Below are positions 3,241 to 16,330 of a stretch of DNA of 16,653 bases, piece by piece. How positions within the stretch are numbered: the stretch's first letter is position 1; the number at the start of each line of letters is the position of its first letter. This stretch comes from a virus (taxonomy: Duplodnaviria > Heunggongvirae > Uroviricota > Caudoviricetes). A program made the position numbers and the translations under genes. The stretch lies in IMG/VR virus record IMGVR_UViG_2869947659_000004; one strand, 5' to 3'. The notes beneath the pieces are model-generated. The model did no database searches and was not told the origin of the DNA. It saw only the letters and a program-made list of their open reading frames with translations.

Positions 3241-3573
3241 TCAGGGTGCAGAAGGACTAAAGATAAACGTTTTCTTCACGCCTTTACACGGCCTGTCCTT
3301 CTCAAATCGCCATTTTGCCATCGCCTTTACAACCTGCTCATCAAACAAATGGTGCGGCTCTGAACGGATAAACTCAATTCGGGTGACAGTACCATCAGCA
3401 CCAATATCAAACTTCACATCAACCCGTCCCTTTATATAATTTGCCGCTGCATAGGCCGGATATTGTGGTAATGCCTTAACCAACTGTCGGGGCATATCTG
3501 TTTTATGTTGCGTACAGCCCATAACCAGAGAAGACAACAAAATAATTAACGGAAGGTTTCTTTTCATTTTCAT
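3241..3573 (-). CDS. Lipoprotein consisting of a TonB C-terminal-like domain
   Basis: Signal peptide plus lipobox (…LLSSLVMGC, +2 Thr). The mature part, PQYPAYAAANYIKGRVDVKFDIGADGTVTRIEFIRSEPHHLFDEQVVKAMAKWRF, aligns residue-by-residue with the E. coli TonB C-terminus (PQYPARAQALRIEGQVKVKFDV…AMRRWRY). Start is uncertain: GTG 3582, ATG 3573 or ATG 3567. Confidence 0.7.
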   Translation of the reverse strand: MKMKRNLPLIILLSSLVMGCTQHKTDMPRQLVKALPQYPAYAAANYIKGRVDVKFDIGADGTVTRIEFIRSEPHHLFDEQVVKAMAKWRFEKDRPCKGVKKTFIFSPSAP

Positions 3574-3911
3574 TCCCGGCACAGATAAGAATAAGTCTTA
3601 TTCTAACAATGCCACCCTGTCGGTCATCAATCCTCTGCTTAATGGCAACGACAATTATCCGACTTAAATCACAAATCAGACACATGACATAACAGAGCTT
3701 GCGAGGTAACACATCGTCCGGTTTCTTCCACCATCGCACCGGACCAGCGACCATGAGGGGACAACGCCGCGCTCCGTTAACGCGGTAAACCCCGGTGTGT
3801 ATCGTTTTTGATTATCCCCGCACACTCGCGCAGAGGAGTCTCCCGGTCGGGCTGCGGTCTCTGTTAATGCGGGGATACGGCGACAATACCGCGCATGGTT
3901 AATAAGGTCGC

Positions 3912-4136
3912 TCAACACACTGGCTGTAATGCAGCGGATACCATGCGGCATTTAGCGGCATTAATCGTACACTCAACGGTTAGCTCTTCATTCGTGGCAT
4001 TCACCTGAAAGGTCCGGGAGTGTAATTGCGTACATTTACCACTGAACGAACCTTCAACAAGAACACGACCACGCTGCAAAATACGGAACGGAATTGTTCC
4101 CTGAAAAGGCTTTACGGTTACCAGTAATTTCTTCAT
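3912..4136 (-). CDS. Hypothetical 74-aa protein (5 Cys, no signal peptide)
   Basis: ATG is preceded by GGAG at RBS distance (CCGGAGAATGCATG), immediately downstream of the spanin genes on the same strand. No family recognised. Confidence 0.4.
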   Translation of the reverse strand: MKKLLVTVKPFQGTIPFRILQRGRVLVEGSFSGKCTQLHSRTFQVNATNEELTVECTINAAKCRMVSAALQPVC

Positions 4137-4159
4137 GCATTCTCCGGATAACAAAAATA

Positions 4160-4558
4160 CTAGTTAATACACTGAGTGCGGATATATTCCTGCGCCCCTT
4201 CCAGTTGCTTCTGCATTGTCATCAACCGCTCTCTGAGGGTGAAATAATCCCGTTCAGCGGTGTCTGCCAGTCGGGGGCCGGTTGCATTATCCATTCCGGA
4301 GGTGCCGGTGGCTTCACGCACGGTACCGGAGCAGGTGGCGTTGATCCGCAGGCGCTTACGACCAGCGGCAACATCACGCTGGCGCTGCTGCATGTCAGTA
4401 ATGGTTGCGTTTGCCAGCTCCAGCTCTCTGGCTTTTTTATCGCGCTGCGCTTTGTAGGTGATGGCGTTATCACGGTAATGGTCTGTTGCCAGCCACAGCG
4501 CACCACAGACCACCAGCAGAATAACGGTAAACGCGGAAAGCATTCGGTTTATGTTCAC
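4160..4558 (-). CDS. Rz: Spanin inner-membrane subunit Rz (i-spanin)
   Basis: …HYRDNAITYKAQRDK…PRLADTAERDYFTLRERL…MQKQLEG… matches lambda Rz. The track start at 4558 is GTG overlapping the upstream stop (GTGA); an ATG at 4543 is an alternative start. Confidence 0.85.
   Translation of the reverse strand: MNINRMLSAFTVILLVVCGALWLATDHYRDNAITYKAQRDKKARELELANATITDMQQRQRDVAAGRKRLRINATCSGTVREATGTSGMDNATGPRLADTAERDYFTLRERLMTMQKQLEGAQEYIRTQCIN
4222..4374 (-). CDS. Rz1: Spanin outer-membrane lipoprotein Rz1 (o-spanin), embedded in Rz in the +1 frame
   Basis: MLPLVVSACGSTPPAPVPCVKPPAPPEWIMQPAPDWQTPLNGIISPSESG: lipobox VSAC, proline-rich, near-identical C-terminus to lambda Rz1 (…WQTPLNGIISPSERG). Confidence 0.8.
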   Translation of the reverse strand: MLPLVVSACGSTPPAPVPCVKPPAPPEWIMQPAPDWQTPLNGIISPSESG

Positions 4559-4686
4559 CCCAGCAGCCCCGACGAAGACAACATCATCCAGGCCATGGAA
4601 AGAAAAAGAGCAACCAGCATTAGTGAAAATGAAATGCCGACAATTACACAGAGGCTCTTCGCCAGCGTTATGAGTTTGTCTGACAT
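4555..4686 (-). CDS. Hypothetical 43-aa single-pass membrane protein
   Basis: MSDKLITLAKSLCVIVGISFSLMLVALFLSMAWMMLSSSGLLG; strong SD (AAGGGAGGATTAAGCATG); its stop overlaps the Rz GTG start. Confidence 0.45.
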   Translation of the reverse strand: MSDKLITLAKSLCVIVGISFSLMLVALFLSMAWMMLSSSGLLG

Positions 4687-4700
4687 GCTTAATCCTCCCT

Positions 4701-4883
4701 TCACGATTTCAACGCAATGACCAGTTTTGCCAGCCCATACAGCATCGGGGACACAGCAACACCGACCGCCACCCACTTAATGGCAAAAGCCAGTGCTCTG
4801 CTGATGTCATCAGTTACAGGCGCTTTCAGTTCAAGGCCGTTTTTCATGGTCAACCTCAACAGAATTCGTTTATACTTCGCCAT
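4701..4883 (-). CDS. Hypothetical 60-aa protein with a C-terminal transmembrane segment
   Basis: MAKYKRILLRLTMKNGLELKAPVTDDISRALAFAIKWVAVGVAVSPMLYGLAKLVIALKS; SD AGGGAG 4 nt before the ATG (AAGGGAGAACATG); 14 nt upstream of the 43-aa ORF. Confidence 0.45.
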   Translation of the reverse strand: MAKYKRILLRLTMKNGLELKAPVTDDISRALAFAIKWVAVGVAVSPMLYGLAKLVIALKS

Positions 4884-4917
4884 GTTCTCCCTTGCCTTAC
4901 TCAAGGTCAGAAACACA

Positions 4918-4952
4918 AAACCCCGCTTGGTGCCAACAAACGGGGTTTTTAC
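4918..4952. terminator. Bidirectional rho-independent-type hairpin between the endolysin and the small ORF pair
   Basis: AAAACCCCG-n15-CGGGGTTTTT with T-rich runs on both strands. Confidence 0.5.
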
Positions 4953-5038
4953 TTTTATTCACTTACGTTTCGCCAGTTCGCAGGATTTCGTGTTATCCGT
5001 CCGCGTGCTCATGCCTTATTTTCAGCAAAATATTCTGC

Positions 5039-5572
5039 TTATCTGTCGATGTCCCAGCACGCCAGCGCACTTTCCTGGTCTCGCCGGGATACCTGACCGT
5101 AGCAATTATTTGAGCGGATACGGCAGTCTCTGCCACCGTCCTTAATCCACCAGCGAATCGCTTCGCATGCTCCCCTGCGGTCACCAGCATTAATCCGTCT
5201 GTAAAACGTCGACGGGAAACACTTACCGGGGCCAATGTTATAGGGACAAAATGACGCGATACCCGCTTTCTGGGGTTCGGTCAGCGGCACTTTAATATTG
5301 CGCTCCACCCATGCCAGCGCCTTATCACGCTCAATGGCGTTGACCTGGTCGCATTTTTCCTTCGACAACTTCATGCCCGGGACGACAGGTTTACTATCCA
5401 CCAGGATGGCACCGCGGCAGATGGTCCAGATACCCGCGCCATCACGGTATGCCGTGGTGTGGTTACCTTCCTTTTCATCCAGAAACTGGTCGAGGATTTC
5501 AGGCGCAGGCGCACCTGCGGCAATCAGCGCCAGAACGGCAGCCGACAGGCCGTATTTGATTTTGGTGTTCAT
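5039..5572 (-). CDS. R: SAR endolysin (phage lysozyme, GH24) with N-terminal signal-anchor-release domain
   Basis: 177 aa; the Ala/Gly-rich weakly hydrophobic N-terminus (GLSAAVLALIAAGAPAPE) is followed by a T4-lysozyme-type catalytic region (…EGNHTTAYRDGAGIWTICRG…). Recalled as near-identical to Qin RrrQ. Confidence 0.9.
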   Translation of the reverse strand: MNTKIKYGLSAAVLALIAAGAPAPEILDQFLDEKEGNHTTAYRDGAGIWTICRGAILVDSKPVVPGMKLSKEKCDQVNAIERDKALAWVERNIKVPLTEPQKAGIASFCPYNIGPGKCFPSTFYRRINAGDRRGACEAIRWWIKDGGRDCRIRSNNCYGQVSRRDQESALACWDIDR

Positions 5573-5622
5573 GGATATTTATCAGGGTTTATCGATTTCA
5601 AATCCCTGGATATGTTAAGTCT

Positions 5623-5967
5623 TCAGGCCAGCGGTGGAGTCTTCAGAGAACCAGTAATTATTCCCGGTAGTTTTCCTCTGTAGGTTATCAACACATCCTG
5701 CGCCTCTAAAATTACGGGGCGCTTTTCCGGCAACGGACCATCCCCTTCACATAACCCGGCAGCAACATCCATGAAAAACTGCTTCGCCTGCTTTTTCGCC
5801 TCAGCTTCGTAAAACTCCAGCGTGGCATCTTCAGTACGGTCAAGACTAATCGCCACATCTGGCAACAACAGTGACGGATACCCACCAATTTCCAGTGCCA
5901 CAGTAACAGTAATCTTATTCGGGTAATTATTTATCCCTTTAACAACCAGTTCGTATTTTTTCTTCAT
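5623..5967 (-). CDS. DUF1327 (YdfR-like) prophage protein between holin and endolysin
   Basis: 114-aa soluble protein in the position occupied by ydfR between essQ and rrrQ in the Qin prophage; assignment is from recall. Confidence 0.6.
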   Translation of the reverse strand: MKKKYELVVKGINNYPNKITVTVALEIGGYPSLLLPDVAISLDRTEDATLEFYEAEAKKQAKQFFMDVAAGLCEGDGPLPEKRPVILEAQDVLITYRGKLPGIITGSLKTPPLA

Positions 5968-5971
5968 CGCT

Positions 5972-6187
5972 TTACTCTCCCCGCGCCGCCTTACGACGGT
6001 CCTCTCTGATTTTGAAATACAGGTTAGTCAGATATGTCAGCAGCCCAAACAACAGACTCCCCAGCACGCCTATTGCCGCCCACTGAGACGGGGAAACCCT
6101 GTCCAGCAACTGCAGGAACCAGTAGCCCGTTCCCACCGCTGACGTGGTGTATGACACACCTGTTGTGATTTTTTCCATCTGGTACAT
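5972..6187 (-). CDS. S: Class II holin, phage-21 S-like pinholin with dual start (71/68 aa)
   Basis: [71 protein letters not shown]: two TMDs, S21-like C-terminus, Met1/Met4 dual-start motif, SD GGGAG upstream. Confidence 0.9.
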
Positions 6188-6616: not shown

Positions 6617-7507
6617 TCAGGCTGCCAGATCATCGTTTCCGATGGAAGCATAATAAGCTTTTTCTGCTTCTGCCGGAGGGATGTGGCCCAGCCTTTCCAG
6701 CAATCGTCGATTATTATACCAGTCCACCCACGTGAGTGTGGCCAGTTCCACTTCTGCACGGTTTTTCCAGCTCTTACGGTGTATTACCTCCGCTTTGTAA
6801 AGACCATTGATGCTCTCCGCCATCGCGTTGTCATACGAGTCGCCTGTACTTCCTGTTGATGCCAGTAATCCGGCTTCCTTAAGCCGCTGTGTGTAGGCCA
6901 GCGATACATACTGAGAACCTTTATCACTGTGATGGACCGTGCCGGACGGTCGACGGGCCCATAACGCCTGCTCCAGAGCATCCAGCACGAATGTCGTTTC
7001 CATGGACGATGAGACCCTCCACCCCACGATGTATCCGGCAAACACATCAATAATGAACGCCACATAGACGAAGCCCTGCCATGTGCTGACGTAAGTAAAA
7101 TCAGCCACCCACAGCTGGTCAGGTCGTTCTGCCACGAACTGACGGTTTACGCGGTCGCCTGCGGCAACGGCTTTCCGGCTGATGGTCGTACGGACCTTTT
7201 TACCCCGGAGAACGCCGGCAAGTCCCATAACCGCCATGAGACGTGCCACAGTGCATCTGGCCACTCTGATACCTTCCCGTAACAACTGACGCCAGACTTT
7301 ACGCACACCGTATACCTGATGATTCCCATCGTATACGCGCAGTATCTCTTTCTTCAGCCAGTCATCGCGCTGCGCACGGGCACTGCGTTTATCAGGATGA
7401 TGTCGCTGTTGCTGACAGTGGTAATACGTTGACGGGGCAATATGTAGTTCACTGCATACCGGTCCGACCCCGTACAGCTTACGCAGCTTATCCAGCAGTG
7501 GCATCAC
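6617..7507 (-). CDS. IS3-family transposase OrfB (DDE integrase core)
   Basis: Same translation as 1..888 (+); overlaps orfA by 4 nt, consistent with an OrfAB frameshift fusion. Confidence 0.9.
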
Positions 7508-7821
7508 TGGCGGTCGAACTCCGCCTTCGCAAAATAAGCGGAAGCCTGGCGAAGGATATCGTTACTGCGGCGCAGTTCACGATTTTCACGTTCCAGCTCT
7601 TTCAGACGCTGACGTTCAGCGGTGGTGAGCCCGCCATCACCGCCTCCGGTATCCCGCTCATGCTGGCGTACCCAGACACGCAGAGTCTCCGGTGTACAGC
7701 CAATCTTTGGGGCAATGGAACAAATTGCCGCCCACTGTGAGTCATATTCGCCCTGACTTTCCAGAACCATACGAATCGCCCTCTGACGGACTTCGGGGGA
7801 AAAACGAGTATTTTTAGTCAT
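7504..7821 (-). CDS. IS3-family transposase OrfA (HTH)
   Basis: [57 protein letters not shown]…; 54-nt leader after the left terminal repeat. Confidence 0.9.
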
Positions 7822-8160: not shown

Positions 8161-8659
8161 TTATGCGGCTGCTCCAGCTTTGTTTGCTTTAACTTCCACC
8201 GTATCAATAAGTACAGGGTAGGTTTCTGCACTACCTGTAATATCCGTAATGACAAACCTGTTGAGTCCATTAGCAGTATTGGCCCATTTCACCAGGTCAA
8301 ACGCCTGTCCATCCACACCATCAAGCACCGGAGTAACATTAATGCTGTTACTGCCCTTAAATTTAAATGCAAGCGTATGCCAGTCATGGTCGAATGCGCC
8401 AAACGTGCCAAGTTCTTTTTGTTGATTAACTGTATGATGGTATGCAACATTAATACTGGCTTTATCTGTCTGGACAAAGAAAGAACTCAGATGGCCTTCA
8501 CCACCCTCACCCGGCCATTCCGCTATTCGCCAGTACAAACCAAAGGCATACTTGTTTCTGGTTGTCTCAAGATTGACGTTTTCGGGGATTTTAAACCGGA
8601 CAGCAATTTCCCCGCCTTTTTCCAGTAAAAGTTTTGCCTTGTCTGCAGCAATATCACAG
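8161..8659 (-). pseudogene. nanS-p-like sialate O-acetylesterase, C-terminal segment (split by IS600)
   Basis: Frame continues exactly from 9924..11293 once IS600 and one copy of its target-site duplication are removed; the 174-aa track ORF starts inside IS600. Confidence 0.75.
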
Positions 8660-8723
8660 TGAGGTAGCCTGAGTTTAACGGACACTCCTTCCTGAAATAG
8701 AATGGCATCAGAAGGAGCTAATA

Positions 8724-9061: not shown

Positions 9062-9880
9062 ATGTGTCAGGTATTTGGTGTATCCAGGAGCGGTTATTAC
9101 AACTGGGTACAGCATGAACCCTCAGACAGAAAACAAAGTGATGAGCGGCTAAAACTGGAGATTAAGGTGGCACATATCCGCACTCGCGAAACATATGGAA
9201 CCCGGCGGCTCCAGACGGAGCTGGCAGAGAATGGCATCATCGTTGGTCGTGACCGACTGGCACGTCTTCGTAAGGAGCTAAGGCTACGCTGTAAGCAGAA
9301 ACGTAAGTTCAGAGCGACTACGAACCCGAACCACAATCTGCCAGTTGCGCCAAATCTGCTGAACCAGACGTTCGCTCCTACAGCACCAAATCAGGTCTGG
9401 GTGGCGGACCTGACGTATGTTGCCACACAGGAGGGATGGTTGTACCTCGCTGGCATCAAAGATGTTTATACGTGCGAAATTGTCGGCTACGCCATGGGAG
9501 AGCGCATGACAAAAGAGCTGACAGGTAAAGCCCTGTTTATGGCGCTCAGGAGCCAGCGCCCACCTGCCGGGCTAATCCACCACTCTGATCGAGGTTCACA
9601 GTACTGCGCATACGATTACCGGGTCATACAGGAGCAGTCTGGTCTGAAAACATCAATGTCGCGTAAAGGTCACTGTTACGACAACGCTCCGATGGAAAGC
9701 TTCTGGGGAACGCTGAAAAATGAGAGCCTGAGCCACTATCGTTTTAATAACCGGGATGAAGCCATCTCAGTAATACGGGAATACATTGAGATTTTCTACA
9801 ATCGTCAGCGTCGTCACTCTCGTCTGGGGAATATCTCCCCGGCAGCCTTCAGGGAAAAATATCATCAGATGGCTGCTTAA
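9062..9880 (+). CDS. IS600 transposase OrfB (DDE)
   Basis: 272 aa with the IS3-family integrase core (…IHHSDRGSQY…, …CYDNAPMESFWG…). Confidence 0.9.
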   Translation: MCQVFGVSRSGYYNWVQHEPSDRKQSDERLKLEIKVAHIRTRETYGTRRLQTELAENGIIVGRDRLARLRKELRLRCKQKRKFRATTNPNHNLPVAPNLLNQTFAPTAPNQVWVADLTYVATQEGWLYLAGIKDVYTCEIVGYAMGERMTKELTGKALFMALRSQRPPAGLIHHSDRGSQYCAYDYRVIQEQSGLKTSMSRKGHCYDNAPMESFWGTLKNESLSHYRFNNRDEAISVIREYIEIFYNRQRRHSRLGNISPAAFREKYHQMAA

Positions 9881-9923
9881 AAAAAGAACAAATGGTAGTG
9901 TCCGCTATTGCCAGTACACCTCA

Positions 9924-11293
9924 CAGTACATTGACCAGGATTTCGCGCTGTTATTTTTCTCAATTCGCAGAGCTTTATTGCCGCTGTCATCAACCAGTGT
10001 GCGTCTGCCATACATACCGTCCCAGCCATAAGGTTTCAGCTGATTGTCTGTAGCTTTTTTGGCATCGTAAAAAATTACAGACTCTGAGGTGGTAACCGGC
10101 CTGTCTGGAACAACCACCCCGGCAGTACCATTAACAAACGCAGAAGACTTACCCGCGCAGCTCAGAATCGCCGTTGCCAGACGGTCGGAAATAATCCCAC
10201 GGCGAGCCCATGAACTGAAATGGCTCGCCCTGTCCTGTGACGTCCAGGTGGCTGAGCTGTCACGCCATTTCGAACCGTAATAACCGATACCCGGAATGTC
10301 CGGGTCTTCTTCCGGTTTGTTCGTCGGCACATTCACCCCGTTCTCATCGGTCATGAACGGTACGAAATGGATATTCTTTTCCGTTTTATTTTTATAGCTG
10401 CCGTACACCGTCTGGTACGTGGATTCGTTCTTCTGCTTCCAGAAATACGTCGTGTCCCCGCATATCCAGGGAACACCGCCAGCAGAGCCACCGACGCACT
10501 GGCCTGCCATATCCGCCAGGTCTGCACGGAATTTATCAACCAGCGCACCAAACTGTGCGGCATGATTTGCCGGCGTACCGCCAAAATCAAATTCCCCCTG
10601 CATCCACACCACGGCAAACAGCACATTTTTCGGGTTCTTCTCCAGTGCCGCTTTTGTTCGACCGATAAGGTCCTTATACAGCGGCTTGTCCACACCCCAG
10701 CGGGTTGAATTCTCCGAGGCACCACTCGCGTCACTGTATGTGCCATCAGCTCCGGTGGTGAACGCTGAACCACCACGACAGCACGGAACCAGCAGAATGC
10801 CCGCATTCGCCGGTATAAACGGCAGCAGTTTTTTGGCGATATGCAGCCCCTGCCCCACGGTTCCGTACTGCCCCTTTGACAGGTCCGCTTTCGGATGGTT
10901 AAGACGGCTCATGTCCTGCACATCATGCAGACAATGGTCCGCCGGAATGATGTCGTTATATTTGCATGCTGCACCGCCCGGTGTCACCGTACTGCGACGC
11001 GCCAGTTGCTTAATACGCGGGTCCGGACGGTCATATGTCCCCGGCAGCGGAAGGCCTTCACCATACGACATGCCGTTTGACTGCCCTGCCAGAACCACAA
11101 CAAAGTAATACTCCGGGTCGCTGGTGGCGCTGATTACTGCACCTTCTGCTGCAATCGCCTGCATCAGAGTATAAGGGGTTATGGCCACCGGACTACCAAA
11201 CGGCTGCCAGCCCTCTTTCAGTTTATGTGTCAGCTTTTCCGCAAGATCTGACGGCGACGCCGCCCTGACAACATCATAGTGTTTAAAAGCCAT
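9924..11293 (-). pseudogene. nanS-p-like sialate O-acetylesterase (prophage NanS-p / SASA-SGNH hydrolase), N-terminal 456 codons
   Basis: N-terminal prophage-type domain followed by the SGNH/SASA motif VVVLAGQSNGMSYGEG. Located between the tRNA cluster and the lysis cassette, as nanS-p is in Stx-type prophages. Interrupted by IS600 after codon 456. Confidence 0.75.
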
Positions 11294-11512: not shown

Positions 11513-11737
11513 TTTGCCCACAAGAAAGCCCCTCCGGAGAGGGGCTGGAGAGTGGCGCTATGTGCCATTGCATGGTGCCGGGTGCCTCCCGGTGAATTCA
11601 GTACCAGCACCTGAATCCGCGATTATCCCATATACCTACTCGCTGATTGCCCCTCCGCACAGGGGGATTCACCATGCCAGTTTCTTTTAACAAACTCCCC
11701 GCAAACCAGACAACAGTCAACCGTCTGAATTGTGAGA

Positions 11738-11782: not shown

Positions 11783-11859
11783 TGGCGCGTTGTACTGGAT
11801 TCGAACCAGTGACCGATTGCTTAGAAGGCAATTGCTCTGTCCGGCTGAGCTAACAACGC
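11783..11859 (-). tRNA. tRNA-Arg (anticodon UCU)
   Basis: Cloverleaf read by hand: acceptor GCGTTGT/ACAACGC, anticodon loop CTTCTAA, T-arm ACTGG-TTCGAAT-CCAGT, encoded CCA. Confidence 0.85.
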
Positions 11860-11872
11860 ATGATGCAGATAA

Positions 11873-11949
11873 TGGACCGCCATCGGGGACTTGAACCCCG
11901 CGCAGCCAGCTTCGAAGGCTGGCGCTCTTTCCTGATGAGCTAATGGCGG
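11873..11949 (-). tRNA. tRNA-Arg (anticodon UCG)
   Basis: Acceptor CCGCCAT/ATGGCGG, anticodon loop CTTCGAA, T-arm CGGGG-TTCAAGT-CCCCG, encoded CCA. Confidence 0.8.
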
Positions 11950-11956
11950 TATGTGA

Positions 11957-12032
11957 TGGTGGCCCTTGCTGGATTTGCACCAGCGACCTGGCGATTATGA
12001 GTCGCTCGCTCTCACCACTGAGCTAAAGGGCC
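11957..12032 (-). tRNA. tRNA with CAU anticodon (Ile2/Met type, ileZ-like)
   Basis: Acceptor GGCCCTT/AAGGGCC, anticodon loop CTCATAA, T-arm GCTGG-TGCAAAT-CCAGC, encoded CCA. First of three in the order CAU / Arg / Arg, as in the ileZ-argN-argO cluster of Stx-type phages. Confidence 0.8.
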
Positions 12033-13105: not shown

Positions 13106-13501
13106 TTACTGATAGTGTTTTATGTTCAGATAATACCCGATGACCTTGTCATGCAGCTCCACCGATTTTGAGAACGACAGTGACTTCCGTCCCAGCCTTG
13201 CCAGATGTTGTCTCAGATTCAGATTATGTCGCTCAATGCGCTGAGTGTAACGCTTGCTGATAACGTGCAGCTTTCCCTTCAGGCGTGATTCATACAGCGG
13301 CCAGCCATCCGTCATCCATACCACGACCTCAAAGGCCGACAGCAGGCTCAGAAGACGCTCCAGTGTGGCCAGAGTGCGTTCACCGAAGACGTGCGCCACA
13401 ACCGTCCTCCGTATCCTGTCATACGCGTAAAACAGCCAGCGCTGACGTGATTTAGCACCGACGTAGCCCCACTGTTCGTCCATTTCAGCGCAGACAATCA
13501 C
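13106..13501 (-). CDS. insB: IS1 InsB
   Basis: [28 protein letters not shown]… is the characteristic InsB sequence. Confidence 0.95.
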
Positions 13502-13858: not shown

Positions 13859-14106
13859 CGCTCGACGAGTGGAAACCAAAACGGTTCAGTCTCCCAATAA
13901 CAAACACTACCCTGGTGAAATACGGAAAACTAGGATACATCGTTCCAAGACCACAAAAAATTCGTGGGCGTTGGCTGATAGATCGCCGAGCAGTATTTGT
14001 TGGGCCTGGTGAAACGGGAATTGCGCCGGAAATTCATACTGGCGATGATGATGCACTGAAGGAGATTTTAACTCATGTCACCGAGGCCACGAAAAAACAG
14101 CACTGA
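13859..14106 (+). pseudogene. xis: Excisionase (lambda Xis-like), start codon removed by IS1
   Basis: …PLDEWKPKRFSLPITNTTLVKYGKLGYIVPRPQKIRGRWLIDRRAV… resembles lambda Xis (…LTLQEW…VRRWVRECRIFPPPVKDGREYLF…). No start codon exists after the IS1 end, and the 3' end overlaps int as in lambda. Confidence 0.6.
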
Positions 14107-14899
14107 CGTAGCCGGTCTTTACGAAAAGTTTGATCGCAGAACTGGCAGAGTTTACTACCAGTATAAAAATCCTGTGACTGGAAAATTTCACGGACTCGGA
14201 ACAGACAAAGGTAAGGCAGAAAAAATCGCTTCCACAGCCAATCAGCGAATAGCTGCAGCAGAAGCTGAATATTTCATGCGCAAAATTGATGAAAGTCCGT
14301 CAGCAACAAAACGTCGGGGTATCAGATTAAAGGCATGGGTTGATCGATATCTGAAAATACAGGACACGCGACTGAAAAATGGAGATATTGCAGCTACAAC
14401 TCACAAAGAAAAAACTCGAATGGCTGCATACCTGGTTTCCCGTCTGGGAAACCACCCATTGAAAGAACTGGAAGTAAGAGACTTTGCATTAATACTGGAT
14501 GAGTGGCTGGATAAAGACATGGTCAGCACAGCGAGAGTAAATCGTGGATTATGGGTTGATATTTATAAAGAAGCACAGCATGCAGGGGAAGTTCCTCCTG
14601 GATGGAATCCTCCGGAGGCTACCCGTAAACCGATCCCTAAAGTAACCAGAGCCAGGCTCACCATGGAAGACTGGCAAAAAATTTACAATGCAACGCCTGA
14701 AAAACACTTTATCCGTAACGCAATGCTTCTTGCGATTGTTACTGGTCAGCGCCGTGATGACATTTGCCACATGCGTTTTTCAGATGTGTGGAACGAACAC
14801 TTGCATATCACCCAGGGAAAAACCGGAATGCGTCTGGCGTTACCGCTTACACTACGCTGTGATGCCATTGGGATAACGTTAAAAGAAGTTATTGATGGG
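14075..14899 (+). pseudogene. int: Phage integrase (tyrosine recombinase, lambda Int family), 3'-truncated by IS600
   Basis: N-terminal arm-binding and core-binding regions are present, but the ORF runs straight into the IS600 left end at 14900, so the C-terminal catalytic region including the Tyr is missing from this window. Confidence 0.85.
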
Positions 14900-15413
14900 T
14901 GAGGTAGCCTGAGTTTAACGGACACTCCTTCCTGAAATAGAATGGCATCAGAAGGAGCTAATAATGAGCAGAAAAAACCAACGTTACTCTAAAGAGTTCA
15001 AAGCCGAAGCTGTCAGAACGGTTCTTGAAAATCAACTTTCGATCAGTGAAGGCGCTTCCCGATTATCCCTTCCTGAAGGCACTTTAGGACAATGGGTTAC
15101 CGCCGCCAGAAAAGGGCTCGGTACTCCTGGTTCCCGCACGGTGGCTGAACTGGAATCTGAAATTCTGCAACTGCGTAAGGCGTTAAATGAAGCTCGCCTT
15201 GAGCGAGATATATTAAAAAAAGCAACAGCGTATTTTGCACAGGAGTCGCTGAAAAATACGCGTTAATCGAACAATGGCGACAACAATTTCCCATTGAAGC
15301 GATGTGTCAGGTATTTGGTGTATCCAGGAGCGGTTATTACAACTGGGTACAGCATGAACCCTCAGACAGAAAACAAAGTGATGAGCGGCTAAAACTGGAG
15401 ATTAAGGTGGCAC
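14900..15413 (+). mobile_element. IS600, second copy, left 514 bp only; interrupted by IS2
   Basis: Identical to 8660..9173 of the complete copy; identity stops at 15413 where the IS2 terminal repeat begins. Confidence 0.9.
14964..15266 (+). CDS. IS600 transposase OrfA (copy 2)
   Basis: Identical 100-aa translation to 8724..9026. Confidence 0.9.
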   Translation: MSRKNQRYSKEFKAEAVRTVLENQLSISEGASRLSLPEGTLGQWVTAARKGLGTPGSRTVAELESEILQLRKALNEARLERDILKKATAYFAQESLKNTR

Positions 15414-15424
15414 TGGATTTGCCC

Positions 15425-16330
15425 CTATATTTCCAGACATCTGTTATCACTTAACCCATTACAAGCCCGCTGCCGCAGATATTCCCGTGGCGAGCGATAA
15501 CCCAGCGCACTATGCGGATGCCATTCGTTATAATGTTCGAACGCCTCTGCAAGGTTCTTTGCTGCCGTTAACCCGTCTGGTTTGGGCATGATACTGATGT
15601 AGTCACGCTTTATCGTTTTCACGAAGCTCTCTGCTATTCCGTTACTCTCCGGACTCCGCACCGCCGTGTTCTTCGGTTCAAGTCCCAACATCCGGGCGAA
15701 CTGGCGTGTTTCATTAGCCCGGTAGCATGAACCATTATCCGTCAGCCACTCCACTGGAGACGACGGAAGATCGTTGCCGAAGCGGCGTTCCACCGCTCCC
15801 AGCATGACGTCCTGTACTGTTTCACTGTTGAAGCCGCCGGTAGTCACCGCCCAGTGCAGTGCCTCACGATCACAGCAGTCCAGCGCGAACGTGACACGCA
15901 GTCTCTCTCCGTTATCACAGCAGAACTCGAACCCGTCAGAGCACCATCGCTGATTGCTTTCTTTCACGGCCACTCTGCCTGTATGTGCCCGTTTCGATGG
16001 CGGTACAGCAGGTTTTCGCTCAAGCAACAGCGCATTCTGGCGCATGATCCGGTAAACACGTTTGGCATTGATCGCAGGCATACCATCAAGTTCTGCCTGT
16101 CTGCGAAGCAGCGCCCATACCCGACGATAACCATACGTGGGCAGCTCTCCGATAACATGGTGTATACGGAGAAGCACATCCGTATCATCAGTGTGACGAC
16201 TGCGGCGGCCATCCATCCAGTCATCGGTTCGTCTGAGAATGACGTGCAACTGCGCACGCGACACCCGGAGACAACGGCTGACTAAGCTTACTCCCCATCC
16301 CCGGGCAATAAGGGCGCGTGCGCTATCCAC
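15425..16330 (-). CDS. insD: IS2 transposase InsD (OrfB)
   Basis: [43 protein letters not shown]…, 301 aa. Confidence 0.95.

Follow-up and report, generated by a model that had tools for sequence, protein, structure and literature searches.

In the textbook lysis cassettes of lambda and phage 21 the genes usually run holin, endolysin, spanin, and in lambda no gap separates the endolysin gene from Rz. What, then, occupies the 480 bp (4559-5038) between the endolysin stop and the GTG start of Rz in the viral record IMGVR_UViG_2869947659_000004, a stretch of 16,653 nucleotides (nt; "the window", to which all coordinates refer) whose lysis cassette lies on the minus strand? We found a hairpin followed by two short open reading frames (ORFs), ORF1 and ORF2. 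Comparison with related loci indicates that both are genuine conserved genes for single-pass membrane peptides (topology predicted), that the gap is a recombination-prone slot for small-peptide genes which is always filled in this cassette clade, and that ORF1 is a mobile cassette with a conserved predicted antisense promoter and a terminator. The always-filled slot and the mobile cassette are, on this evidence, new here.

Layout of the lysis cassette

The cassette comprises the following features, given with the evidence for each (lengths in amino acids, aa).

5972-6187 (-): S21-type class II holin (pinholin); Pfam Phage_holin_2_1, E 1.9e-32
5623-5967 (-): DUF1327/YdfR-family gene in the holin-endolysin interval; Pfam DUF1327, E 2.4e-45
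5039-5572 (-): signal-anchor-release (SAR)-type phage lysozyme (endolysin R); Pfam Phage_lysozyme, E 2.8e-24; phrog_7, endolysin
4917-4949 (both strands): GC-rich hairpin, 13 pairs and a 7-nt loop, between an A-run and a T-run; terminator scan and folds
4701-4883 (-): ORF1, 60 aa, Shine-Dalgarno AAGGGAG; phrog_1115
4555-4686 (-): ORF2, 43 aa, Shine-Dalgarno AGGGAGGA 6 nt 5' of the ATG; phrog_4906
4160-4558 (-): Rz i-spanin, 132 aa, GTG start; Pfam Phage_lysis, E 9.9e-33, matched in two stretches
4222-4374 (-): Rz1 o-spanin remnant in a frame embedded in Rz; ORF translation and alignment

Read along the minus strand, the hairpin lies downstream of the endolysin gene and is followed by TTTTGTGTTT; it is the sole terminator-like site that a terminator scan returned in 4100-5700, and 33 nt separate it from the ORF1 start codon. 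The TGA stop of ORF2 and the GTG start of Rz share bases as GTGA. The gap, the hairpin, the two ORFs with their Shine-Dalgarno sequences and this overlap had all been listed in an initial annotation of the window, and each was present on the minus strand at the positions it gave. In the ORF translation, the holin gene shows two Met starts in one frame, spaced by three codons, for 71- and 68-aa products; the hydrophobic N-terminus of the endolysin is consistent with a SAR domain, and a homologue of the 5623-5967 gene is annotated 'YdfR family protein' in RefSeq.

Coding selection and predicted topology of the two peptides

We compared the window copy of the two ORFs with those of O157, of a Shiga toxin-producing E. 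coli (STEC) strain with a different lysis cassette, and of Salmonella prophages, using nonsynonymous (dN) and synonymous (dS) substitution rates. The ORF1 core (codons 21-60) gave dN 0.06-0.16 and dS 0.9-1.7, the latter near saturation, with dN/dS of 0.05-0.11, and ORF2 gave dN/dS of 0.07-0.56. For both ORFs the annotated frame had the lowest dN/dS among the three sense frames. Against the wobble-aligned antisense frame, the sense dN/dS of ORF1 was lower in 4/4 pairs, while for ORF2 the antisense value was equal or slightly lower in two of the five pairs. The copies also agree in starts, stops and Shine-Dalgarno sequences. Because coding selection acts in the annotated frames even at saturated dS, we take ORF1 and ORF2 to be real genes.

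Each peptide has one strongly hydrophobic 19-residue window, at residues 38-56 of ORF1 (mean Kyte-Doolittle 1.88) and residues 12-30 of ORF2 (mean 2.61), in agreement with the single transmembrane segment per ORF that the initial annotation had proposed. The AlphaFold2 model of ORF1 contains a helix over residues 21-59 with a predicted local distance difference test score of ~90 and an N-terminal helix of low confidence; in ORF2, positive charge lies N-terminal of its one predicted transmembrane segment. By prediction, both peptides thus have the size and hydrophobicity of type I toxins (under ~60 aa, membrane-targeted). ORF1 has an alternative in-frame start at Met13 (4847) with its own GAGG, which would give a product of 48 aa. 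A 142-aa ORF on the plus strand (4717-5145) was considered as a gene and rejected, as its length is not conserved (42-198 aa elsewhere) and it runs through the hairpin; where it lies antisense to ORF1, we judged it to be a shadow of the ORF1 codon pattern.

Families and distribution

ORF1 matched phrog_1115 (E 2.6e-42, residues 1-60) and ORF2 matched phrog_4906 (E 2.8e-23, residues 1-43), both labelled 'unknown function', and both peptides are named hypothetical protein in every source found. The ORF1 protein is identical to RefSeq WP_001151823.1 (in locus L001), its exact sequence occurs in ~1000 contigs, and the exact ORF2 sequence is on record from Shigella boydii. The 351-nt ORF1-ORF2 segment was covered to at least 80% in 1039 of 5426 complete E. 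coli genomes (~19%) and was likewise seen in deposited genomes of phages (PhiR5_2, PhiR12 series). The ORF1 family is small: a profile search of 1.84 billion representative proteins returned 21 clusters, all of small uncharacterised proteins. Homologues of ORF2 were found in Escherichia, Shigella, Citrobacter and Cronobacter, and hosts of the ORF1/ORF2 families comprise Escherichia, Salmonella, Citrobacter, Cronobacter and metagenomic phages, with unrelated flanks. A scan of a genome contig collection for ORF1 gave no confirmed loci, and the K-12 Qin prophage has no endolysin-Rz gap and no homologue.

Neither peptide matched Pfam or NCBIfam at E up to 1, known type I toxin families included, nor the PADLOC defence models at the same threshold, and a profile search of the PDB gave chance matches only (picornavirus VP4, E 0.1 or worse). 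The further peptides of the slot had no Pfam match either. No mention of ORF1 or ORF2 was found in the full-text literature by accession, peptide, RNA/DNA string or phage name, and a phrase search on the R-Rz junction returned nothing relevant. No Pfam or PHROG match to holin or antiholin families was obtained for ORF1 or ORF2, and the cassette's own holin matches strongly. Both ORFs lie downstream of the endolysin, with tails (...ALKS and ...SSSGLLG) that are not highly charged, which is unlike a holin. Nor do they resemble spanins: ORF2 continues only ~8-13 residues past its membrane segment, ORF1 has no such extension, and neither carries a lipobox. ORF1 and ORF2 are therefore catalogued yet uncharacterised, and the earlier statement that neither could be placed in a known family was upheld.

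Content of the endolysin-Rz junction in related prophages

We surveyed the 80 closest relatives of the endolysin in IMG/VR (94-100% aa identity), 75 of which reach Rz. All 75 junctions were occupied by small-peptide genes spanning at least ~290 nt, and in none did the endolysin gene abut Rz. At least six architectures were distinguished.

22 loci: p24-type peptide, ORF2, truncated ORF1 core, 28-aa '...RWW' peptide
21 loci: ORF1, ORF2
18 loci: single 45-aa peptide (phrog_6632)
6 loci: ORF1-like protein ending ...RWW (phrog_4493)
6 loci: antirepressor, ORF2
2 loci: other mixes
5 loci: contig ended before Rz

Every variant inspected was preceded by the same post-endolysin hairpin. The antirepressor stood at the junction in the O157 Sakai prophages Sp10 and Sp12 and in one O111 prophage, with an ORF2-like gene next and then Rz, which bears out the proposal of the initial annotation that this junction is an insertion point, occupied by an antirepressor in some O157 prophages. 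Its premise that cassettes of this type normally have no gap fails for this clade and holds for K-12 Qin. In the 22-locus architecture, the truncated ORF1 core begins at a GTG that overlaps the ORF2 stop (L086/L107, ~3430-3460). The sequence GGGGTGA at the end of ORF2 (window 4555-4560) leads into Rz here and into the truncated ORF1 core in those 22 loci, and is a recombination joint at which different downstream genes have been swapped onto one stop/start overlap.

ORF1 and ORF2 outside this cassette

Each of the two genes can occur without the other, and both occur away from the pinholin/SAR system. In Salmonella, ORF1 lies without ORF2 between a lysozyme gene (in a cassette with an HP1-type holin) and Rz, and in E. 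coli 2014C-3655 ORF2 lies without ORF1 directly 5' of Rz. In E. coli STEC307, both follow Phage_holin_8, Phage_holin_3_7 and a GH108 endolysin. A Cronobacter prophage (L190-L193, 1-2822; L085, 1175-3045) has the same two holin families and GH108 endolysin followed by an ORF2-like gene, and a 60-aa lipoprotein with lipobox VGC comes next; the same lipoprotein gene lies 3' of ORF2 in STEC307. These GH108-type cassettes contain no Rz-like gene. ORF2 and the lipoprotein were considered as a minimal spanin pair in them and rejected, the periplasmic tail of ORF2 being far too short. Just upstream of its lysis cassette, the Cronobacter prophage carries genes for the A and B subunits of an LT-II-type enterotoxin.

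At the ends of prophages, relatives of ORF1 lie 3' of genes for tail fibres or tail spikes, in one case as a tandem pair of paralogues. Others were found 3' of a capsid gene, among several small genes of which one encodes a holin (phrog_920) and another a SAR endolysin; in a P2-like G/FI slot, flanked by tail-fibre-assembly and sheath genes; and within a baseplate module. ORF2 was seen in our sample only downstream of endolysins. Cassettes are duplicated in tandem in L094 and L096. These contexts point to ORF1 being a mobile cassette.

In the metagenomic phage L096 (2440-3110), the hairpin CAAACGCCCCGGCAGTTnGnCGCTGCCGGGGCGTT occurs in three near-identical copies, each 5' of a small membrane-peptide gene, and the array is placed between the capsid gene and the SAR endolysin; here the cassette appears to have been multiplied in tandem along with its hairpin. 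In L186/L187 (2001-2601), a 49-aa ORF1-family gene ending ...RWW stands directly 5' of Rz, beside IS110. This is a prophage remnant in what is probably a Salmonella chromosome (a SopD gene is nearby). That the contig collection has the exact 49-aa sequence in 1647 of its indexed blocks suggests that the remnant is widespread.

Hairpin, predicted antisense promoter and predicted antisense RNA

Sixteen ORF1-family cassettes were compared for the hairpin and a -10 box. A GC hairpin preceded by an A-run and followed by a T-run lies 25-60 nt upstream of the ORF1-family gene in 15/16, with stem sequences that differ between contexts. At the tail-fibre ends this hairpin is the second of two in tandem, the first of which already terminates the upstream operon, and we therefore assign it to the ORF1 cassette. 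Since an A-run lies 5' of the stem, the hairpin would also terminate transcription on the plus strand, so that 4917-4949 can, by its sequence, act as a bidirectional intrinsic terminator. Two plus-strand features complete the predicted arrangement.

4847-4876 (+): promoter-like site TGGTCA, 18 nt, TATACT, inside ORF1 codons 3-12; the sole promoter-like match in 4100-5700
4883-4957 (+): predicted antisense RNA, ~75 nt, with its start placed ~7 nt after the -10 box and its end at the hairpin and U-run

The promoter-like site points into the hairpin. Its -10 box occupies the same register in 13 of the 16 cassettes (TATACT in 10, TATAAT in three), and one further cassette has TACAAT shifted by 2 nt. 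Loci L181-L189 were collected after the antisense hypothesis had been formed and served as an out-of-sample test of the box. The amino acid preceding the Tyr at the -10 box is variable (K, Q, N, L, V or W), and the K-to-N change turns TATACT into the consensus TATAAT. No part of the cassette is better conserved than the 45-nt block that bears the promoter, with a mean pairwise identity of 0.76 versus 0.58 for the next 63 nt and fewer third-position changes (Fisher p 0.006-0.017 in 3/6 deep pairs); dS was 0.04-0.47 over ORF1 codons 1-20 versus 0.9-1.7 over the core.

The predicted RNA folds as a whole with -21.4 kcal/mol (z = -3.0) into a 5' stem-loop, which carries an anti-Shine-Dalgarno CUCCC, and the terminator, and equivalents of 70-102 nt were predicted in eight cassettes, all spanning the Shine-Dalgarno sequence and start codon and ending at the hairpin and U-run. 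In folds of the sense mRNA, the ORF1 Shine-Dalgarno sequence is sequestered in a stem. From this layout we infer a ~75-nt antisense RNA over the ORF1 ribosome-binding site. Neither the conserved promoter in the first codons of ORF1 nor the travelling of the hairpin with ORF1 as one cassette was part of the initial annotation.

Rfam at its gathering threshold returned nothing at the cassette in the window and eight related loci. A permissive scan gave a sub-threshold rimP-leader match at 4885-4959 (+), with 25.6 bits versus a cut-off of 47, which we treated as terminator-like noise, though its limits coincide with those of the predicted RNA. No sigma-70-like sense promoter was found on the minus strand of 4100-5700, which includes the interval from the endolysin stop to ORF1. 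The conserved AGTATA block was rejected as a sense promoter, since T is missing from position -7 in all of its variants (TATAAA, TATAAC, TATACC and TATAGC) and it lacks a -35 element that could serve.

Among known prophage small RNAs (sRNAs), EcOnc10 and EcOnc11 lie at the end of a YnfO-like gene after Rz, and EcOnc51 lies upstream of the holin gene. The Hfq-bound EcOnc22 (~85 nt; homologues EcOnc23 and EcOnc24) is antisense between tail genes I and J of Sakai Sp15 (L098, 1491-1732; Sakai 2902690-2902931), another late-operon junction with an antisense small RNA. The Pas sRNA preprint and the anti-sRNA paper were set aside as a match, because their sRNAs sit between pR' and the holin gene and not in the endolysin-Rz gap.

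Proposed explanation and its alternatives

We propose that the gap is a slot of genuine peptide genes, that ORF1 comes with an antisense RNA in a type I toxin-antitoxin-like arrangement, and that the peptides serve as late membrane-acting lysis accessories; we rate the chances of this whole account as about even. ORF1 and ORF2 would be transcribed only within the late operon, when Q-modified RNA polymerase reads through the terminator, because no sense promoter was found and a strong terminator lies directly upstream. The ORF1 cassette would consist of the bidirectional terminator hairpin, the ORF1 translation-initiation region and the opposite-strand sigma-70 promoter in codons 3-12. That promoter would drive the ~75-nt RNA (+, ~4883-4957), which would end at the hairpin and pair with the ORF1 Shine-Dalgarno sequence and start codon. 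The RNA may thereby block translation of leaky ORF1 message and set a threshold that holds until late transcription swamps it. The peptides would then act on the cytoplasmic membrane as accessory lysis factors, affecting timing or efficiency. The comparisons show the anatomy of the gap, the coding selection, the distribution and modular contexts of the genes, and that hairpin and -10 box are conserved; we infer the existence of the RNA, the late-only expression, the membrane action and the lysis role. A late-expressed, membrane-perturbing lysis accessory is our best guess for the peptides, favoured because of their constant association with endolysin and spanin genes, that of ORF2 especially; the unrelated late junctions and tandem duplication of ORF1 would also fit a semi-selfish RNA-gated toxin module. 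A bolder version, which we advance tentatively and rate somewhat below an even chance, is that ORF1, hairpin and antisense promoter represent an unrecognised family of type I toxin-antitoxin-like mini-cassettes without a toxin promoter, which parasitise phage late operons, hop between late-gene junctions (endolysin-spanin, capsid-lysis, tail-fibre end, P2 G/FI), duplicate in tandem, and act with ORF2 and the other slot peptides as an RNA-gated lysis booster or timer.

Several observations weigh against this explanation. The RNA and the translation of both ORFs are predictions from sequence. The promoter-like site taken by itself is at chance level (one found versus 1.4 expected), its -35 elements are weak and variable across cassettes, and 2/16 cassettes have no -10 box. 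Amino-acid conservation of the N-terminal peptide Y-K-R-I-L-x-R-L-T-M-K-N-G means that protein constraint may account for some of the nucleotide identity in the block, and a conserved GAGG/GGAGG before Met13 may mark an internal start that constrains the block as well. In the 22 loci of the p24 architecture the truncated ORF1 core is kept, and promoter and hairpin are both missing. Classical type I toxin genes are transcribed from a promoter of their own, and none was found for ORF1. The located Hfq-CRAC (cross-linking and analysis of cDNA) peaks of O157 Sakai (Sp10, Sp12 and Sp15; PMC4104026, Table S2) fall outside the endolysin-Rz junction; this is not a true negative, because Sp10 and Sp12 lack ORF1 and the Sakai ORF1 copies were not located. 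Frameshifts affect 5/91 ORF2 copies. Finally, ORF1 relatives also lie far from any lysis gene, which argues against an obligatory lysis role. A rival reading makes the slot genes ordinary late-operon morons without an antisense RNA, the 5' block reflecting the N-terminal peptide and a Met13 ribosome-binding site and the hairpin being the endolysin terminator. The peptide motif is kept across deep lineages, GAGG/GGAGG stands 6-7 nt 5' of Met13 in all lineages, many database entries begin the ORF1-family protein at Met13 (48-51 aa), and the promoter scan is at chance level; in a variant of this idea, ORF1 could be a two-start gene with 60- and 48-aa products, as in holin/antiholin pairs. Yet the residue before Tyr is free to vary while the hexamer stays -10-like and K-to-N improves it, third-position conservation in the block exceeds that of the core, and the second hairpin with its upstream A-run at tail-fibre ends is redundant for sense termination. 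We regard this alternative as a serious one that is nonetheless unlikely.

The initial annotation had suggested lysis-timing modulators for the pinholin/SAR pair, a membrane-acting toxin, or exclusion or abortive-infection cargo. Dedicated timing modulators, antiholin- or releasin-like and specific to this pinholin and SAR endolysin, would explain the constant endolysin-spanin position, with the slot filled in 75/75 SAR-endolysin relatives, and the ORF1-like genes beside a holin and SAR endolysin in L096. Precedents exist in P2 lysA, which lies between endolysin and spanins and affects lysis timing, and in Mu gp25, a small membrane 'releasin' for a SAR endolysin. We consider this idea quite unlikely. 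The peptides also stand behind other lysis genes, namely a GH108 endolysin paired with Phage_holin_8 and Phage_holin_3_7, and a Salmonella lysozyme paired with an HP1-type holin; relatives of ORF1 lie 3' of tail-fibre genes, within a baseplate module and at a P2 cargo site; and the slot content is interchangeable (ORF1, ORF2, p24 type, RWW type, antirepressor). Cargo expressed in the lysogen to protect the host is a distinctly doubtful reading. HK97 gp15 and T4 Imm are exclusion proteins that are likewise small and located in the inner membrane, as both peptides are predicted to be, relatives of ORF1 are found where cargo genes classically lie (at prophage ends 3' of tail-fibre genes, and in the P2 G/FI slot), and the slot content varies widely among related prophages. 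It is disfavoured by the failure to find a sense promoter between the endolysin stop and ORF1, by the strong terminator that stands 30-60 nt upstream in nearly every context and leaves no room for a promoter, by the blank PADLOC search, and by the restriction of ORF2, as far as seen, to lysis cassettes. That the gap is non-functional spacer or regulatory DNA in which the ORFs are incidental is highly improbable. In its favour, the ORFs are of very small size, frameshifts or fusions affect some copies, and a long open frame (4717-5145) runs on the opposite strand; against this, purifying selection in the annotated frames is strong even at saturated dS, the copies match in their starts, stops and Shine-Dalgarno sequences, the family persists in four bacterial genera and metagenomic phages with unrelated flanks, and the opposite-strand frame varies in length and crosses the hairpin.

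Condition of the spanin genes and of the prophage

Rz has undergone a 75-bp in-frame deletion between 12-13-nt direct repeats, with its junction near 4376/4377, leaving 132 aa versus 157 aa in L010. The deletion removed 25 residues together with the Rz1 start codon and n-region (MRELKMKLCVL), leaving MLPLVVSAC..., and it is common to four IMG/VR loci (L006, L022, L039 and L046); the spanin pair is therefore probably defective. In O157/O111 prophages, ORF2 ends 7 nt before an ATG-initiated Rz, and that ATG reads ATA in the clade of the window (4550-4552, -). Two possible starts are left for Rz: the GTG two codons upstream that overlaps the end of ORF2, and an ATG lying three codons downstream, the one chosen by RefSeq. 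The GTGA overlap from which translational coupling into Rz had been suggested is thus present, but it is peculiar to this lineage and the suggestion was not supported; coupling into the spanin gene would have little meaning in this copy, because Rz/Rz1 is damaged and the Rz ATG reads ATA.

The window is a heavily decayed E. coli/Shigella prophage, with a decay pattern typical of Shigella-like genome decay. Insertion sequences of several kinds (several IS3-family with ALIL pseudoknots, IS66, IS1) lie in segments 1-2793, 6617-7540, 9062-9880, 13106-13501, 14075-14902 and 15425-16330, which include a truncated lambda-type integrase gene, and a nanS-type esterase gene is split into 9905-11293 and 8161-8685. 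No Q antiterminator gene was visible in the window. Upstream of the lysis cassette, the pR'-proximal cargo region contains an STnc100 sRNA (139 bits) and three tRNA genes (11516-11706, -, and 11786-12032, -); according to a 2026 preprint, STnc100 is related to the prophage sRNAs PasD1 and PasD2. Directly after Rz, an 80-aa ORF (3912-4154, -) matches the middle of the 291-position phrog_2571 (unknown function; E 4e-28) and may be a gene fragment. Further downstream of Rz, at the position of lambda bor, a gene at 3241-3582 (-) encodes a 113-aa lipoprotein (Pfam TonB_C, E 1.4e-14), for whose family the phrog_1267 label 'Rz-like spanin' looks like a misannotation.

Significance

A very common E. 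coli/Shigella prophage cassette clade, including those of O157 and other Shiga-toxin strains, always carries variable tiny membrane-peptide genes before the spanin genes, and these genes appear to have been studied by no one. If the peptides tune the timing or efficiency of lysis, phage burst would be affected, as would toxin release in Shiga-toxin prophages. Should the antisense RNA prove real, the repertoire of type I toxin-antitoxin systems would gain a new, abundant RNA-controlled membrane-peptide module, and the cassette would show how such modules ride phage late transcription.

Comparison with known systems

A positional parallel is lysA of P2, a non-essential membrane-protein gene that likewise lies between the endolysin gene and the spanin genes (lysB/lysC). 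LysA is larger, with several membrane segments and no sequence relationship to ORF1 or ORF2, whereas these are single-pass by prediction and ORF1 also occurs outside lysis cassettes. The Sakai antirepressor (ECs_1965, ECs_2258) shares the insertion point itself, 3' of the post-endolysin hairpin and followed by an ORF2-like gene and then Rz; unlike the slot peptides, it is a 189-aa cytoplasmic protein of the Bro-N/Ant type, which replaces ORF1 and is no membrane peptide. Antiholins and dual-start holins (S21-71/S21-68, lambda S107/S105) and the Mu gp25 releasin resemble the peptides as small membrane proteins of lysis cassettes that tune a holin or SAR endolysin, and the two candidate in-frame starts of ORF1 recall the dual-start holins. 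No homology links them, however, the peptides accompany more than one type of holin and endolysin, and the membrane helix of ORF1 is C-terminal, far from its alternative starts.

Morons such as lambda bor and lom and the HK97 gp15 exclusion protein are, like the slot genes, compact insertions at conserved late-gene junctions, mosaic among related prophages and with small membrane products. A classical moron is expressed in the lysogen from a promoter of its own and is followed by a terminator; here the terminator is upstream and the sole promoter-like element points the opposite way. Of these moron features, we observed insertion between conserved genes and mosaic distribution, and found no sense promoter or downstream terminator in 4100-5700. 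The moron concept is cited in PMC4104026.

The layout, with a putative RNA and putative toxicity and repression, matches that of type I toxin-antitoxin systems (symE/SymR, hok/mok/Sok). In one such system, hokW-sokW of prophage Sp5, HokW aids phage release (PMC8621323). ORF1 and ORF2 differ from these systems in showing no sequence similarity to Hok, Ldr, Ibs, TisB, ShoB, Zor or other known toxins, and in that no dedicated toxin promoter was found, the gene standing behind a terminator on the phage late operon. They share with them a small hydrophobic peptide (43-66 aa), a predicted 70-100-nt antisense RNA whose promoter lies in the 5' end of the peptide gene and which spans the Shine-Dalgarno sequence and start, a Shine-Dalgarno sequence sequestered in the mRNA, and an occurrence on mobile elements that is taxonomically narrow and includes tandem duplicates.

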